NCBI GenBank assembly: GCA_000092065.1
Contig: CP000600.1
Origin: Ostreococcus lucimarinus
Taxonomy: Eukaryota
Direction: 5' to 3' (one strand)
Length of the DNA stretch: 64,000 nucleotides
The notes beneath the pieces are model-generated. The model searched no databases. It was given only the letters and a program-made list of their open reading frames with translations, and was not told the origin of the DNA. The translations under genes were made by a program, and so were the position numbers. Positions 23,175 to 39,696 of the stretch are shown in pieces (the stretch's first letter is position 1; each line of letters starts with the position of its first letter).

Positions 23175-23708
23175 ATGCTCGCGCGCCGCGACGCCCTCCT
23201 GAGCGCCGCGCTGAGCGCCGGCGCGCTCGCGCGACCGCGACGCGCGCGCGCGGCGCCGGCGCCGACGTTCGCGCCGACCAGGGACGGCGTGCGGTTCCGC
23301 GACGCGCGCGTCGGCGACGGACCCGAGGTGTTCGCGCACGACGCCGTCGTCATCCTCTTCACCGCGCGCGTCCTGCCGAGCGACGACGGCGCGCTCGATC
23401 GGCGGCGCGCGGGGGACACGTTCGATCCGTTCGTCGTCGGCGGCGCGGGCGCGAGCGCGTCGAAGGGATTCAAGCTGGAGATTGGGAGCGCGACGAATGA
23501 CATTCCGGAGGGCTGGGCGCGCGCGTTCGAGGGCGACGGCGACGCGATGCCGCGGATGCGAATCGGTGGGAAACGAATCGTGCGGATACCGCCGAGCTTG
23601 GCGTACGGCGAGCGAGGGCATCACTGTCGAGACGGCGTGCGAGGGGCGTGCGAGGTGAACCCGGGGGAGAGCGTGGAGATTGACTTTGAGATTCTTCGGT
23701 ACACGTGA
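23175..23708 (+). CDS. FKBP-type peptidyl-prolyl cis-trans isomerase, lumenal/plastid type (Cys pair in the C-terminal region)
   Basis: FKBP fold (GDGPEVFAHDAVVILFTARV..GDTFDPFVVGGAGASASKGFKLEIG..IPEGWARAFEGDGDAMPRMRIGGKRIVRIPPSLAYGERG). The transit-like N-terminus is MLARRDALLSAALSAGALARPRRARAAPAP. The ATG lies 28 bp from the divergent UXT-like ATG. Confidence 0.65.
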   Translation: MLARRDALLSAALSAGALARPRRARAAPAPTFAPTRDGVRFRDARVGDGPEVFAHDAVVILFTARVLPSDDGALDRRRAGDTFDPFVVGGAGASASKGFKLEIGSATNDIPEGWARAFEGDGDAMPRMRIGGKRIVRIPPSLAYGERGHHCRDGVRGACEVNPGESVEIDFEILRYT

Positions 23709-23721
23709 CGCGTCATCGTCG

Positions 23722-24687
23722 CTATCGATGCTCGTCGTCGGAGACGGTCGTCGCGGCCTGGGCGAGGGCTTTCTTCTTTAGCATCCATTTCGGCGCGTCG
23801 TCGCGGCGGGGCGACAACGCGCTTACCGAAGCCGGCGCGACGCCTTTCGCCTTGGCCTCGAACACGCCGTCGTCCTTCGCGGCGGCGCCGATGGCGACGA
23901 TGTACGATTTCTTCTCGTCTCCGGACGGAAGCGCGGTGAATATCTGCGCGAAGACGACGACGTTCGGGTCCTTCAAATTCACCGAGACTTCGCACTCGGC
24001 GTCGGCGTCCTTGAACGCTCGCTCGCACGCCTTCGCAATCTTCGGCACCATCACCGCGCGCCCGTGCGCGACGTCGGACGCGTCCGTGTCTTCCTCGCTA
24101 ACGCTAGCGGTGCTATCCACCCTCTTGTTATACACCACCGCGAACGCGATCGATTTCGATCTCGCGTCTTCGCTCCGCGCGCGCGTCTCCCGCACGACTC
24201 TCTCCACGCACGCTCGCATCCCGTCCTCGTCCCCGACCTCGAACGCGCCGTCGATCGGGTACATCTTGTATAAAAATTCCGACCCCTCGTCCTTCCCTCC
24301 TCGCACGTCGTCGAGCGCTCGTTTCACCGTCGCCGTCGCCGTCCGCGCCGAGCCGCCGCCGCTCGCCGCCATCAACAGCGCCCCCCTCGCCGGCAGTTTC
24401 ACCGGCGCGTACGCCGAGTCCTCCCCCAGCATCCGTCGCAACGCCGCCGTCGCGCTCTTCTCTCTCGATTGCCGGCACGTCGCGAACACCGCTCGGACGG
24501 CGCCGTCGCCGTCGCCGCGCTCGAGCAGCGTCGCCCGCAGCGTCGCGTACGCGAACCTCCGAAACTCGCCCGCGCCGCGCGCGCGCTTCGCGTCGCCGCC
24601 GTCGTCGTCGTCGGCGTCGTCGCGCGGCGCTCGGCGTCGCATCTGCGCCTCGGCGGCGTCGCGCAGGCGCGCCGACGGCGACGACAT
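23722..24687 (-). CDS. THUMPD1: THUMP-domain protein (THUMPD1 / Tan1-like tRNA acetylation adaptor)
   Basis: The C-terminal half has a THUMP-like fold (VSVNLKDPNVVVFAQIFTALPSGDEKKSYIVAIGAAAKDDGVFEAKAKG). The ATG at 24685-24687 is embedded in a CATG shared with a + strand ATG. Confidence 0.5.
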   Translation of the reverse strand: MSSPSARLRDAAEAQMRRRAPRDDADDDDGGDAKRARGAGEFRRFAYATLRATLLERGDGDGAVRAVFATCRQSREKSATAALRRMLGEDSAYAPVKLPARGALLMAASGGGSARTATATVKRALDDVRGGKDEGSEFLYKMYPIDGAFEVGDEDGMRACVERVVRETRARSEDARSKSIAFAVVYNKRVDSTASVSEEDTDASDVAHGRAVMVPKIAKACERAFKDADAECEVSVNLKDPNVVVFAQIFTALPSGDEKKSYIVAIGAAAKDDGVFEAKAKGVAPASVSALSPRRDDAPKWMLKKKALAQAATTVSDDEHR

Positions 24688-24847
24688 GGATTTCGGCGCC
24701 AAAACGCCGCGCAGTGACGACCGACGTCGTCGTCGTCGCGCGCGCCGGGCGCGCGCGATACCGCGCGAAGGCGCGAGCGCGCCGTTCGCATCGTCGTCGT
24801 CGTCGTCGACGGCGCGTGTGAGTCGAACGGCGCGACGGGAAGGCGCG

Positions 24848-27800
24848 ATGCGTCGACGCGTCGCGAATGTCTCGCGGCATCTTAATCTCAATCTCGCGAC
24901 GCGCGCGACGCGCGGACGGGCGATCTGGACGGCTCGAGCGGATCGAGACGACCGCGCGGATGTCGCGGCGCGAACGGGGGGGCGGGACGCGGCGGGAGAG
25001 ACGTCGGGGCGCGAGGGGGTGGAGGTGGACGCGGGGACGGCGGCGAGGCGGACGACGAACGGCGTGCGAGCGCCGTTCGAACCCTCGGGAGATCAGCCGA
25101 GCGCGATCGAGCGGTGCAAGGAGCTGCTGAGCGATCGCGATAGGAAGTTTGTGTGCCTGAGGGGGGCGACGGGGACCGGGAAGACGTACGTCGTGGCGAA
25201 CGTGTTGGCGGCGCAGCGAAAGCCGGCGCTCGTGGTGGTGCCGAATAAGACGCTCGCGGCGCAAGTCGCGCGCGAACTTCGGGCGTATCTGGGCGAGAGT
25301 CACCGGGTGGAGCTGTTTGTGTCGCATTTCTCGGTGTACGTGCCGGAGTCGTACTCCAATGGGCGGTACACGGAGAAGCGAAGCGCGATTGATTCTGATC
25401 TGGACGCGTTGCGGCATCGAGCGACGCGAGCGCTCGTTGAACCTGGGAAGACGCCCGTCGTCGTCGCGAGCGTGAGTTGCCTGTATGGTTTGGGGTTACC
25501 GACGGATTACGTAGATGCGGCGCTGACGATCGAGATCGGGGCCTCGGCGTCGACATTCGGCATCGACGGCGTCGAGGATAAGCTTCGCGACGATTTACTG
25601 TACGAGCGCGTGATGCCGTACATGGATATTGAGCGCGGTCAATACAAAACTACCGCCGCACCTGACGACGACAACTGCTTCACCATCACTATTTGGCCGC
25701 CATATTTGGAAAGTGCGTTGGACGTACGAGTTCGAGGCGACGACGGCGTCGTCGTCGCGTGTGAAGCGCGCGGACGCCGGGTCGATTTACCGCTCACGAT
25801 TTGGCCGCGCGTGCACTACATCACCCCGGCCGAGCGCCTGCAACGCGCGCTCGTGAGCATCAAGGCTGAACTGGACGAACAAACGAAGAAGCTTCGCGCC
25901 GAGGGGTGCGCGATCGAGGCTGATAGACTGGAGCAGAGAACCAACGCCGACTTGACCTTGCTGCGAGAGCTCGGTTGGTGCCCAGGCGCCGAGCACTACA
26001 GCCGTCATTTACGCTGCGCAAAGCCCGAAGAGCCGCCGGTGACGCTTCTGGATTACTTTTCATACTCAGCGGACTCCCAAACGCGTCGCGACTGGTTATT
26101 GGTCGCCGACGAATCTCACGTCATGCTGCCGCAACTTCGCGCGATGCACGGCGGCGACAGAAGCCGTAAAACGGCGCTCGTGGGCGCCGGTTATCGTCTG
26201 CCATCGGCGTTGGACAATCGTCCACTCATGAGCGAAGAATTCTGGCAGCGTGTCCCGCAGGCACTGCTCGTGAGCGCGACTCCGGGCGATATTGAGACGG
26301 AATGGGTCGGCGGCAAGTCGAGCGATGCCATGGTTGACATGGTCGTGCGACCGAGCGGCGTGCTCGATCCGCCGGTGCACGTCGTAGGCAAAGAGAATCA
26401 ACTCGAAGCGTTGGCACAGCGAGTGAATGAGAAAGCTAAGATTGGCGAACGCTCGCTGGTGTGCGTGCTCACCAAGGCGGACACCGAGGATCTGTCGATG
26501 TACTTGAACGCGCACGGCGTGCGCGCCGATTGGGTGCACTCAGAGCTCACTGCCCCGCAACGTGCCGAAAAACTGTCCAAGCTTCAACAAGGCGAACTAG
26601 ATTGTATCGTGGGTGCGCAGCTTCTGCGCGAAGGCTTGGATCTACCTTCAGTGTCGCTCGTCGCCATTTTAGATGCGGATATTCCTGGTTTCATGCGAAG
26701 CGCGCGCTCGTTGATGCAGATGGCTGGCCGGGCGGCGCGGAACAAGAACGGCGAATGCGTGCTCTTTGCGGATTCCATCACCGCCGCCATGAAAGAGATG
26801 ATGAATGAGGTCGATCGTCGTCGCGTGAAACAACACAAGCACAATGTCGACAACAATCTCGTTCCGGTGACGGCGACGTTGGGGTCTTCGACGTCGACGC
26901 TCTCTCTCTTCGACGTCATGGCGGATGAGATCGAACTTGAGAAGCAAAAGTGGGCCGTAGAACAGTCCGCTGCGCTCACGTCGCCGAAGAGTGCTGAAGT
27001 AGACACGGAAGCCGTCGATAAAGCGCTCCGAAGTTGGCGAAAGCGACGAGAAGGCGGCGGCGTACGGCCGGGTCCGAAACCGTCAGACGCGCTCAAAGAA
27101 GTGCAGGTGGAGGAGGGCGAAAAACTCGTCGCCGAGACTGTGTTAGATGCGTATGGGCTCGATGCGACGCATGTCGAGCGACTCAGGCGTTTACATCGCG
27201 ATATGCCATCGAAAACAGGAGTGTATCGATGGATCGATGAGGCTGGCAACGTGCTTTACGTCGGCAAGGCGAAGAATTTGCGCTCGCGGACTGGGCACTA
27301 TCTGTCGCCCGCATTGATACAGTCATCGCCGCGACATCGAAAGCTCTTAGCCTCAGCACGCACTCTCGATGCTGTGCTGACGCCAGGCGGCGAAGCCGAT
27401 GCGCTTGCGCTCGAAGCGAGATTAATTCAGCGCGAGCGTCCAGCGTTGAACATTTTGCTGAAGGATGCGCCGAAGCCCGAAAGCGCGCGAATCGTTTTGA
27501 CATCGAGGGATGCCGACGGGCGTATTTTCGTGGCTAAGTTTCAAAATGAGTTCGACCCCACCAGAGCCGAGAAAGTGTGGACTCTCCCCACTCGCGAAGC
27601 AGCAATTCGTATGATGGCTGTTCTCGAACGTGCGCTCGATTTGCGCGGCGTTTCGTTTCGCTCGCGTTTCGGCGAAACCGCCGCCGTCGCGCAGTGGCGC
27701 TTCGCCGCGGAAGTCGCGACTTTGGTACTCGATGCCAAGTATGACGAAGCGGTCGCGGCACTGGAAGACCGTGGTGAAGTTGCGTCGGCGCTTGAGTTGC

Positions 27801-28915
27801 GAATATCCGCCCAAGAAGAAGCCGAGCGAGGCCAGGGCGCTCGCGGTTCGCTCGCTGCGCTCCTGCAAGCGGACTCCGCGGCAAAGCAATGGAACATGGA
27901 TGTCATCGCTGCCGCGAGCAGTGGTGGTGCGACATGTGCGGTAAAGATCGTTAAAGTGCGCGACGGTACAATAGTTGACGTCTACGGTACGAGTGTGGAT
28001 GTGCCGAATGCCACAGCGGACGACGCCATCGCCGAGGCCACTCTAGCCGAAGCCGCACAGCTCGTCGCCGAGCAGATGTACTTGAGCGAATTCTCCGATC
28101 GCCCGGACATGGTGTACATCCCGCACACTATCGCAGAACCGATGAACTTACGCGCAGCGCTTCGTCACACCGGCGTCGGCGCCAACGCGACGAAGAAGAG
28201 TAAGGTCTTGCACCACGGTGCCGCCAAGGAAGGATCGCTCCTCGAGGCGCTCGCGGAAATGGCACTCGAGAACGCCGACGAATCCGCGCGCGCAACGGCG
28301 GTGAAATCCGCCGCGGCGCTTCGCTTAAAGGACGCCATCGGACTCGATGAGTCCCCCACGAGCATCGAAGGCGTGGACGTTTCTCATCTCGCCGGCCAGA
28401 ACGCTGTGACGAGCTTTGTTCGATTCGAGGGAGGTTCGCCGGCGCCGCTCAAGCATCGCCGATACCAGCTCAGTGAAGCCGTAACACCAAGCGACGACTA
28501 TGGTGGTATCGCTGAGTCAATAACCGCGCGCTTGGCGTCCAAGAGCAAACTTCCGGACGTCTTTCTCATCGACGGTGGAGTCGGCCAACTCACCGCGGCG
28601 GCGCACGCGCTTCGCGAAGGCGGCGTCGTCATCTCAAACATGATCGACGACGACAACACCCCGATCGCCGATTCCAGCGCAAAGGCACATCGAACCGTTG
28701 CCTTGTGCGCGCTCGCCAAGGGCCGAAGCAGCGGTGAAGAGGCTCTATGGGTCCCCGCGCTCTCGCCCGGAGGCGTCGTCATGGGCCGAAAAGTCGACGA
28801 CGCCCACCTTGACGCGCTAAAACTTCTCCGTTCGGTGCGCGACAGCGCCCACGCCGTGGCGCTCGGCGCGCATCGTTCTTTACGTCGCGAAGAGCGACTA
28901 AACGCCTTCGCTTAG
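24848..28915 (+). CDS. uvrB-uvrC: UvrB-UvrC fusion protein: complete bacterial-type excinuclease B helicase followed by UvrC GIY-YIG and RNase-H-like endonuclease domains. Single exon, N-terminal R/A/T-rich presequence.
   Basis: UvrB: [151 protein letters not shown]..helicase C ([29 protein letters not shown]). UvrC: [30 protein letters not shown] (GIY-YIG)..[80 protein letters not shown]. An alternative in-frame ATG at 24686 would add 54 aa and overlap the THUMPD1 start. Confidence 0.8.
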   Translation: [1355 protein letters not shown]

Positions 28916-38697: not shown

Positions 38698-39696
38698 TCA
38701 CGCGTCGGGCTCGAGCTTGATTTTTTTCGCTCGACGCTTTTCGGACGTCGGCGTCGCGGATTCCTTGAACGCGGACGGGCACGACGCGTCGGCGGCGAGC
38801 GGGCACTCGGCGCACTTCGGTCGAAGCGGCGTGCACGTGAGCTGGCCGAAGCCCACCAACAGCGGGTTGATCTCGATCCACTCGTCCCGGGGAAGCCAAC
38901 GCTCGAGCGACGCGCGCGTGTCCTCGGGCGTCTTTTTACGCGGCGATCCATTCTTACCGATCGCGCGCTCGGGCGTCCACCCGAGGCGCTCGGTGATTCG
39001 ATGCACGTGCACGTCGACGCAAATTCCCGTCGGCTTTTGCCATCCGACGTTCATGACCAAGTACGCCATCTTCGGTCCGACGCCCGGCAGCGCGCACAGC
39101 GTCTCGACGCTCGAGGGAATGTCCCCGTCGTACTCGTCCAATAAAATCTTCGCCGTCGCCCGTAAATATTGCGCCTTGCGCCTGTGAAATCCCACCGGGT
39201 TCAGCATCGCGTCCAGGGCGTCCTCATCCGTGTTCAGCACGTTCTCCGGCGTGCACCCGTGCGCGCGCAGTCGCGCCATCGCCGCGTGATTGATCTCGTC
39301 CCTCGTCTGCGAGCTCAGCATCGCGCTCGTGAGCGTCAAATATCTCCGATACTTTTCCTCATCCATCGCGCCGCCCTCGCCCTCGACGTCGGCGATCTTT
39401 TCGCACCCCATCGTGTCCACCGCCGCCCGCGGTCCCTCCGCGCGCCAACGCTTGATCGTCGCCAGCGTCTTTTCCCATCCCTCCGGCGCCGTCGTCTCGC
39501 GCGCGGGCTCGAACGCCATCTGCACCGTCTTCGAGCGGCGCTTCGGCGTCGACGGCGGCGCGACGGCGGCGCGCGTCGTCGTCGCGTCGTCGACGTCGCG
39601 GCGTCCGGGCGCGGGCGCGCCGAGGGCTTGGGAAAACGCGCTTCCCATCGCGCGCGCGCGCGAGTCGACGACGCGCGCGAGGACGCGAGGGCGCAT
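38698..39696 (-). CDS. NTH1: Endonuclease III (Nth) DNA glycosylase with a 4Fe-4S cluster loop
   Basis: HhH-GPD (LCALPGVGPKMAYLVMNVGW..GICVDVHVHRITERLGW) and C-X6-C-X2-C-X5-C (CTPLRPKCAECPLAADASC). The ATG is at 39694-39696. Confidence 0.8.
   Translation of the reverse strand: MRPRVLARVVDSRARAMGSAFSQALGAPAPGRRDVDDATTTRAAVAPPSTPKRRSKTVQMAFEPARETTAPEGWEKTLATIKRWRAEGPRAAVDTMGCEKIADVEGEGGAMDEEKYRRYLTLTSAMLSSQTRDEINHAAMARLRAHGCTPENVLNTDEDALDAMLNPVGFHRRKAQYLRATAKILLDEYDGDIPSSVETLCALPGVGPKMAYLVMNVGWQKPTGICVDVHVHRITERLGWTPERAIGKNGSPRKKTPEDTRASLERWLPRDEWIEINPLLVGFGQLTCTPLRPKCAECPLAADASCPSAFKESATPTSEKRRAKKIKLEPDA

Follow-up and report, generated by a model that had tools for sequence, protein, structure and literature searches.

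A window of 64,000 nucleotides (nt) from Ostreococcus lucimarinus (contig CP000600.1 of assembly GCA_000092065.1) contains, on its plus strand, a gene in which a bacterial-type UvrB helicase runs directly on into a UvrC nuclease. Throughout, "the window" is this whole stretch, and positions are counted from its first letter. An open reading frame (ORF) scan of the window found no stop codon on the plus strand from 23705 to 28915. As an initial annotation made without database searches had proposed, both halves lie in a single frame, with no stop or frameshift anywhere within the UvrB-UvrC gene. The locus holds one nuclear gene of a eukaryote, not two genes, and its in-frame joining of UvrB to UvrC is genuine (Table 1). 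All of the motifs quoted in that annotation are present in the ORF, and hidden Markov model (HMM) searches of Pfam and NCBIfam recovered domain models for UvrB and UvrC alike.

The UvrB half matched the NCBIfam UvrB model at an E value of 2.7e-179 over profile positions 4 to 595 of 653. The Pfam matches were ResIII/DEAD at residues 134 to 209, Helicase_C at 574 to 686, and UvrB (PF12344) at 693 to 729; Pfam residue numbers count from the ATG at 24686, and subtracting 54 gives the numbering of the 1,355-amino-acid (aa) protein. Features of the SF2 helicase core are present (Walker A, the DESH box, and motif VI, QMAGRAARN), and identity to residues 8 to 590 of B. caldotenax UvrB is 41%. An AlphaFold2 model of this half had a predicted local distance difference test score (pLDDT) of 93 and a predicted template modeling score of 0.90, with domain 2 at pLDDT 93 to 97. 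In Foldseek searches the model matched the UvrB structures 6O8F, 3UWX (3UWX_B), and 2FDC with template modeling (TM) scores of 0.87 to 0.92, with a root mean square deviation (rmsd) of 2.5 to 2.7 Å to 6O8E/6O8F. The beta-hairpin, which had been assigned at first to the LEQRT block, is instead the segment ending KRSAID. It is 2 aa shorter than in B. caldotenax UvrB and carries Y92H, Y93F, and Y95V, with Y96 kept. Hairpins of the Mamiellophyceae are likewise 2 aa shorter, with Y92H, Y93F, Y95V/L/M, and Y96 retained, while diatoms retain the canonical YYNHY.

Behind the UvrB module, a linker predicted to be flexible (pLDDT 44 to 66 in the AlphaFold2 model) leads into the UvrC half. Here Pfam recognized the GIY-YIG domain (PF01541, residues 844 to 918 in the 24686 numbering; 23.4 bits against a cut-off of 22.6), the central UvrC_RNaseH domain (PF22920, residues 1070 to 1200; 27.2 bits against 24.3), and the catalytic UvrC_RNaseH_dom (PF08459, residues 1216 to 1392; E = 4.7e-25). 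The NCBIfam UvrC model matched at 4.4e-52, with a score below its curated equivalog cut-off. The central domain corresponds to the inactive RNase H domain of UvrC defined by Seck et al. (2023). The catalytic triad of the active RNase H domain consists of the aspartates in IEGVDVSH and LIDGG and the histidine in RDSAH. The AlphaFold2 model of residues 690 to 1409 (24686 numbering) had a pLDDT of 78; its GIY-YIG domain superposed on 1YCZ with a TM score of 0.92 and an rmsd of 1.2 Å, and its RNase H domain matched 2NRT and 8B0Q in Foldseek (E = 2e-10). A helical bundle is predicted confidently (pLDDT 83 to 91) after GIY-YIG, where bacterial UvrC has its UvrB-binding helices. No helix-hairpin-helix (HhH) domain was matched by Pfam, and the protein ends 25 aa past RDSAH, in agreement with the absence of the UvrC HhH pair noted in the initial annotation. 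Identity as Cho, the UvrC homologue with only the 3′ nuclease, was rejected, as the RNase H nuclease is present and the NCBIfam Cho model scored 36.9 bits against a cut-off of 367.

The initial annotation had left the start codon between ATG 24686 and ATG 24848. ATG 24848 is the start codon of the RefSeq model XP_001422505.1 (O. lucimarinus CCE9901), all 690 aa of which match the ORF with 100% identity, and metagenomic gene models of 1,355 aa begin there too. The G+C content at second codon positions (GC2) of the 162 nt from 24686 to 24847 is 0.80, which resembles noncoding DNA, compared with 0.47 for the fusion coding sequence (CDS) and 0.42 to 0.52 for coding sequence here. In addition, ATG 24686 and the start codon of the divergent minus-strand gene overlap in one CATG palindrome. 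The gene is therefore best read as 24848 to 28915; the start at 24686, whose stretch abuts the minus-strand gene, was rejected, and the divergent intergenic region becomes about 160 bp. A 1,736-aa ORF from 23705 was also rejected, since the first 1 kb of its frame is the antisense of the minus-strand gene; the plus strand stays open across that gene because its antisense frame happens to lack stop codons. Long, overlapping ORFs of 200 to 430 aa occur several times on either strand of this GC-rich stretch, in many frames from 22.5 to 25.5 kb (including 23705 to 24847, plus strand). They are stop-poor antisense frames, of which the 1,736-aa ORF is an example, so that ORF length alone is misleading in this genome. 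The RefSeq model (24848 to 26917, plus strand) is marked partial and ends at residue 690, inside the linker. It thus covers the UvrB half only, leaving the UvrC half unannotated and the fusion hidden in the reference, and should be extended.

Table 1. Coordinates of the UvrB-UvrC fusion gene, its parts, and its immediate upstream surroundings in the window
Feature	Position	Strand	Remarks
UvrB-UvrC fusion CDS	24848..28915	+	1,355 aa plus TAG stop, no intron; most likely coding extent
N-terminal extension, ~72 aa, Arg/Ala/Thr-rich	24848..25063	+	Putative organelle (plastid) transit peptide; function inferred
UvrB helicase module, domains 1a, 1b, 2, and 3	25064..26902	+	NCBIfam, Pfam, predicted fold
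Walker A, GATGTGKTY	25163..25189	+	Lys invariant in 20 fusions
Beta-hairpin, damage-verification element	25316..25393	+	Aligned to B. caldotenax UvrB 89-116
Domain 2 (UvrA and Mfd docking in bacteria)	25496..25825	+	Fold kept (predicted), contact motifs lost
DESH box (Walker B/motif II)	26105..26122	+	D, E, S, and H invariant in 20 fusions
Linker, ~96 aa (about 100)	26903..27190	+	Sits where the UvrB C-terminal tail and UVR domain would be
UvrC GIY-YIG nuclease domain (3′ incision in bacteria)	27191..27469	+	PF01541
Beta motif and helical bundle (position of UvrC Cys-rich motif and UvrB-binding helices)	27470..27892	+	Cys motif deleted, UVR signature unrecognizable
Central inactive RNase H-like domain (RNase H1)	27893..28285	+	PF22920
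Catalytic RNase H/EndoV-like domain (5′ incision in bacteria)	28331..28861	+	PF08459
Upstream in-frame stretch from alternative ATG	24686..24847	+	Probably 5′ untranslated region or divergent promoter, noncoding
Divergent neighbor gene	23725..24687	-	ORF, GC3 (G+C content at third codon positions) 0.87; bounds the 5′ end of the fusion gene, not part of the system

The same two-part architecture was found by database searches in more than 60 clusters. Fusions of other Ostreococcus clades are 79 to 83% identical to that of O. lucimarinus, that of Bathycoccus prasinos is 48% identical, those of diatoms (Seminavis, Nitzschia, Amphora, and Extubocellulus) are 35 to 37% identical, and that of Chromera velia is 32% identical. 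The Pycnococcus provasolii fusion is deposited as XRB01906.1 under the name "exonuclease uvrABC," and public entries carry automatic names such as "excinuclease ABC subunit B." Longer fusions of 1,630 to 1,790 aa (P0015-P0023; 51 to 57% identity) are probably of the Micromonas type; these have large low-complexity insertions (in P0020, one exceeding 100 aa separates GIY-YIG from the helical bundle), and some have insertions in domain 2 too. ORFs marked complete in MMETSP transcripts of the diatom Extubocellulus span both halves, so a single mRNA is evidenced for orthologues, not for O. lucimarinus itself. Metagenomes also contain the fusion (a cluster of 160 members), and the two fusion contigs that were inspected look eukaryotic, one having a PPR neighbor and the other, of 518 kb, a neighbor of 8,125 aa. 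The fusion proposed initially is thus real but not peculiar to this alga, as it occurs in Mamiellophyceae, Pycnococcus, diatoms, and Chromera, and these orthologues have the same domain order and the same losses. Five near-identical fusion variants of 813 to 998 aa (P0057, P0060, P0061, P0063, and P0065) differ in blocks around GIY-YIG, and P0063 and P0065 are without the whole middle of UvrC; from their sequences, they look like alternative exons or paralogue mosaics of one uncultured eukaryote.

Twenty fusions spanning 35 to 83% identity were aligned to examine the active sites (residues in 1,355-aa numbering). Invariant positions comprised K112 of Walker A and the DESH box (421 to 424); Y793, Y804, K807, R814, E856, and N868 of GIY-YIG; and E1174, D1177, S1179, H1180, D1216, D1217, D1242, G1243, G1244, R1331, D1332, and H1335 of the RNase H domain. 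All three catalytic centers are therefore under purifying selection in both green and red-plastid lineages, which argues against a decaying relic.

The fusions also share a set of losses. The initial statement that every UvrB domain is present went too far: the UvrB half has lost its C-terminal UVR domain, and domain 2 its UvrA-contact motifs. All 30 bacterial UvrB proteins compared have YDRND (containing R183), FRVRGD (R194/R196), and RVEFFGDE (R213/E215), where the B. caldotenax residue numbers were reconstructed from the HMMER alignment and checked against known residues. In B. caldotenax UvrB these residues (R183, R194/R196, and R213/E215) are said, from work on structure 1T5L, to contact UvrA. 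All three motifs are gone from all fusions, which have lineage-specific insertions. The Pfam model of domain 2 (PF17757) did not match the O. lucimarinus fusion and, among the fusions, matched only that of Pycnococcus (38 bits).

The UVR motif could not be detected in either half. There was no PF02151 match at E ≤ 10 in the linker or the mid-region, and custom HMMs built from the UVR segments of 129 bacterial UvrB and 97 bacterial UvrC proteins gave no positive score on either; the linker had no Pfam match of any kind at E ≤ 10. Hidden UVR domains were rejected on these grounds. All that is left of UVR is a faint "EFEEAG" remnant in diatoms. Since a helical bundle is still predicted at the UvrB-binding position of UvrC, what has been lost is the sequence signature and not necessarily the fold. 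The Cys-rich Fe-S motif, CX6-14CX3H/QX3CX3C as defined by Seck et al. (2023), is deleted in all fusions, with no cysteines at the aligned positions. Likewise, (HhH)2 is absent from all fusions, all of which end within about 100 aa of RDSAH and most within 60.

The UvrB half appears to have its closest prokaryotic affinity with cyanobacteria. A profile of the fusions ranked cyanobacterial UvrB first among prokaryotes (Pseudanabaenaceae, hot-spring Synechococcus, and Prochloron). In a neighbor-joining tree of the UvrB half (29 taxa drawn from the top matches, 587 columns, 200 bootstraps), the fusions were monophyletic at 100% bootstrap, and eukaryotes and cyanobacteria were joined at 92%. A cyanobacterial, hence endosymbiotic, origin of the UvrB half is likely from these sequence comparisons, although not proven. 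Given the profile ranking and the 92% node, the plastid ancestor is a likelier source than the horizontal acquisition first suggested. A chlorarachniophyte transcript, Norrisiella sphaerica P0552 (MMETSP0113; 1,684 aa), has the opposite order, with UvrC RNase H and (HhH)2 but no GIY-YIG at 272 to 538 and UvrB, sister to the fusion clade, at 786 to 1525; this must be a fusion that arose independently or by permutation, or else a chimera of transcript assembly.

The UvrC half is without a close bacterial relative, and no donor could be called. A HMMER scan with this half covered 1.84 billion representatives. Roughly 10 to 15 fused clusters (at the 50% identity level) were among the best 150 matches, and ordinary bacterial UvrC proteins followed at about 1e-31. 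A bacterial fused ancestor was not supported: every fused match among the best 150 has the derived, eukaryote-type losses, and none has bacterial features, although this is absence of evidence only. The best bacterial matches to the UvrC half include short UvrC-like proteins of about 430 to 460 aa from Gemmataceae, Gemmatales, and Anaerolineaceae (P0260-P0304), which keep GIY-YIG, the Cys motif, UVR, and the active RNase H domain and lack the central inactive RNase H domain and (HhH)2.

The gene lies in eukaryotic surroundings. As the initial annotation had stated, neighbors in the window are eukaryotic, and they encode the splicing factor Slu7, the proteasome subunit PSD13, a prefoldin subunit, an FKBP, adenylosuccinate lyase, an Rpb1-type RNA polymerase large subunit, and a protein kinase. 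GC3 of the fusion gene was put at above 90% in that annotation; the computed value is 0.69, and the adjoining genes range from 0.62 to 0.87. Bacterial contamination or a chimera was rejected on the neighbors, their similar composition, and the 100% match to the O. lucimarinus RefSeq model, which together indicate a nuclear gene. The product of the divergent minus-strand neighbor (321 aa) gave no Pfam match at E ≤ 0.01 and no PDB sequence match at E ≤ 1, so neither search confirmed its earlier label, THUMPD1. UvrA was not found within the window, again as annotated, by tblastn with E. coli UvrA (best E = 0.56), a result that says little about the genome. A second DNA repair gene, for an HhH-GPD (endonuclease III-like) glycosylase with an HhH motif, lies 10 kb downstream (38701 to 39696, minus strand).

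Where the protein acts was assessed from its N terminus. The ~72-aa extension that follows from the start at 24848 has no counterpart in bacterial UvrB, where GDQP lies near residue 14, and contains no Pfam domain. The first 40 aa of the O. lucimarinus protein include 11 R/K and 4 D/E, and all green-algal orthologues have a basic, Ser/Thr/Ala-rich extension of 50 to 100 aa without a hydrophobic core. Orthologues from organisms with complex plastids have instead a hydrophobic start that resembles a signal peptide, with A↓F, A↓W, or A↓Y after it; examples are MLFFMWLLLLSSRRCVA↓F, MTTACLCWVSSRATA↓F from Amphora, and MRVSLLCVAMALPLNSYA↓F from Chromera. An aromatic residue at position +1 of the signal peptide cleavage site is reportedly a hallmark of diatom-type plastid import. 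By a crude, home-made heuristic, a signal peptide plus [ASGC][FWYL] was scored in 20 of 27 complex-plastid orthologues versus 0 of 15 green ones, and about 17 of the complex-plastid sequences were read by eye as clean A↓F, A↓W, or A↓Y cases. The extension is consistent with the organellar presequence suspected initially, and of the two possible targets the plastid is favored over the mitochondrion by the signal peptide and A↓F-type motif of the complex-plastid orthologues.

In bacteria, damage is located by UvrA2B2 and verified by UvrB, and UVR-UVR docking then brings in UvrC; GIY-YIG depends on contact between UvrB and UvrC for its 3′ cut, after which RNase H cuts 5′, aided by (HhH)2 (Seck et al. 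2023). D. radiodurans UvrC without (HhH)2 retained both incisions, with a weaker 5′ cut (Seck et al. 2023). A UvrBC complex diffuses along duplex DNA with UvrB on the DNA, and it can recognize UV lesions and improve survival without UvrA (Hughes 2013; Springall 2018).

Against this background, we consider the fusion to be probably a nuclear-encoded, organelle-targeted single-chain excinuclease, with the plastid as its most likely destination, in which a cyanobacterial-type UvrB is tethered to a trimmed UvrC. Its domain content, intact catalytic residues, conservation across lineages, losses, and nuclear context are direct readings of the sequences, and its fold is that of the models above; localization, independence from UvrA, dual incision, and a lesion as the physiological substrate are what we infer. 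After import, the UvrB module would engage DNA, and its ATPase and beta-hairpin would verify the lesion. The tethered GIY-YIG domain would then cut 3′ of the lesion and the RNase H domain 5′, and removal of the oligonucleotide and filling of the gap would fall to other plastid enzymes. Where bacterial UvrB recruits UvrC through UVR-UVR docking, the covalent tether would take over, and such built-in recruitment would account for both UVR motifs having decayed. The missing UvrA-contact motifs point to loading that does without canonical UvrA, for which lesion finding by UvrBC without UvrA offers a precedent. Loss of HhH is compatible with activity, since the HhH-less D. radiodurans UvrC still cuts twice. 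More tentatively, prasinophytes, diatoms, and chromerids may carry out bacterial-type nucleotide excision repair (NER) in their plastids by one endosymbiont-derived polypeptide without UvrA, UVR, Fe-S, or HhH, which would be the first organellar NER machine.

Comparison with characterized systems shows what the algal protein has kept and what it has changed. It shares the helicase motifs, the beta-hairpin, and domains 1a, 1b, 2, and 3 with bacterial UvrB (B. caldotenax; 2FDC/1D9Z/6O8F); unlike that protein, it has a presequence, a shorter hairpin, no UvrA-contact motifs, and no UVR, and it runs on into UvrC. Its second half follows the order of bacterial UvrC (T. maritima 1YCZ/2NRT; D. radiodurans 8B0Q and the model of Seck 2023), namely, GIY-YIG, beta motif, helical bundle, RNase H1, and RNase H2, with all catalytic residues kept. 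In contrast with bacterial UvrC, to which it is 25 to 36% identical, this half is without the Cys-rich motif, the UVR signature, and (HhH)2, and it is fused behind UvrB. The noncovalent bacterial UvrBC (Hughes 2013; Springall 2018) is likewise a unit of B and C, and UvrA-free lesion finding as in that complex is proposed for the fusion. However, bacterial UvrBC is transient, is docked by UVR-UVR contacts, and serves as a back-up to UvrAB, whereas the algal union is permanent and has lost the docking motifs. The engineered D. radiodurans UvrC without (HhH)2 (Seck 2023) lacks the HhH pair as the fusion does and makes both cuts, but it was truncated in the laboratory, is impaired in 5′ incision, and still depends on free UvrA and UvrB; the algal fusion occurs naturally and has been conserved over long evolutionary times. 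Within the family, diatom and Chromera forms differ from that of O. lucimarinus in the signal peptide with A↓F, the canonical hairpin, and the faint "EFEEAG" remnant. The plant "uvrB/uvrC motif" protein AT2G03390 shares only its name and plastid location with the algal fusion: it has a short UVR motif and a YccV-like domain and no helicase or nuclease, while the fusion has the enzymes without the UVR motif.

Several observations weigh against a plastid excinuclease that works without UvrA. Both halves score below NCBI equivalog cut-offs (for UvrB, 597.6 bits against 743 for NF003673 and 587.5 against 750 for TIGR00631). Three of the four key hairpin tyrosines are gone in Mamiellophyceae, so damage verification might be altered or weakened there. 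Some docking within the molecule may also remain, given that the model still contains the helical bundle. The phylogeny rests on neighbor joining with a small top-match sample, and a single-sequence search put GC-rich Chloroflexota and Coriobacteriia first; we take that ranking to reflect composition, given that both the profile and the tree point to cyanobacteria. The signal peptide test was a crude, home-made one, and the green-algal presequence, judged by its composition, fits the plastid or the mitochondrion alike. For O. lucimarinus itself, the fusion is known from genomic sequence alone. Finally, domain 2 is still confidently folded in the models and Pycnococcus still matches PF17757, so that a diverged UvrA contact may persist.

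This last point bears on a different arrangement, in which a separate organelle-targeted UvrA, diverged to fit the altered domain 2, loads the fusion as part of a canonical three-component system. Every lineage has kept domain 2 as a confidently folded module, with the Pycnococcus match to its Pfam model, where it might have deleted it, and in bacteria UvrA is the main damage sensor, UvrA-independent UvrBC repair being only a minor pathway. Nevertheless, we regard such a system as unlikely: the reported UvrA-binding residues of B. caldotenax lie in motifs that are invariant in 30 bacteria and absent from all fusions, and no UvrA is encoded in the window, though that says little about the genome.

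The same enzyme might also be mitochondrial or dual targeted in green algae. An Arg-rich, acid-poor N terminus fits either kind of presequence, and dual targeting of organelle DNA maintenance proteins is common in plants. We find this improbable, since the signal peptide with an aromatic +1 residue in diatoms and Chromera marks the plastid route and the affinity of the UvrB half is cyanobacterial and not alphaproteobacterial.

A task other than excision, such as cutting stalled forks or R-loops, removing ribonucleotides, or controlled degradation of organelle DNA, could be read from the loss of UvrA contacts, UVR, Fe-S, and HhH and from the altered hairpin tyrosines of Mamiellophyceae, and the plant plastid Mfd homologue is similarly suspected of a non-NER role (2020 review). 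We rate it as very improbable: dual incision around a verified lesion calls for an ATPase, a hairpin, and two nuclease sites, which the fusions have conserved as a set, and diatoms keep the canonical YYNHY hairpin. An artefact (bacterial contamination, a chimeric assembly, or a pair of adjacent genes mistaken for one) might be suspected because the RefSeq model covers the UvrB half only and long spurious ORFs are common in this GC-rich sequence, but it is effectively refuted by eukaryotic genes of similar composition on both flanks, the uninterrupted frame, the identical architecture in independent assemblies, metagenomes, and transcriptomes of distant algae, and the derived losses common to all fused representatives.

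Full-text literature searches, in whose coverage most subscription journals were not included, returned no description of a UvrB-UvrC fusion or of any bacterial-type NER enzyme in algae. A 2006 census of GIY-YIG proteins listed UvrC in no eukaryote, and a 2020 review describes plant organelles as seemingly devoid of NER and flowering plants as having no UvrA, UvrB, or UvrC genes. The UvrB and UvrC components and their chemistry are known, and the sequences have been public for years under their automatic names. New are the covalent joining of the two proteins, the losses that the fusions have in common, their setting in a eukaryote and probably in its plastid, and the implied ability to do without UvrA.

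The fusion offers a natural experiment for NER, bearing on which parts are truly needed and on whether a UvrBC unit finds and cuts lesions unaided. If plastid NER by a single polypeptide is true, the protein would be a minimal natural excinuclease. As Ostreococcus tauri and Phaeodactylum are genetically tractable, the idea is directly testable. Among the organisms that have conserved the fusion are some of the most abundant phytoplankton of the ocean. If the protein is plastid targeted, as is probable, a bacterial excision nuclease would have survived in the plastids of several algal lineages, which would bear on the upkeep of highly light-exposed plastid genomes and on their differing mutation rates.

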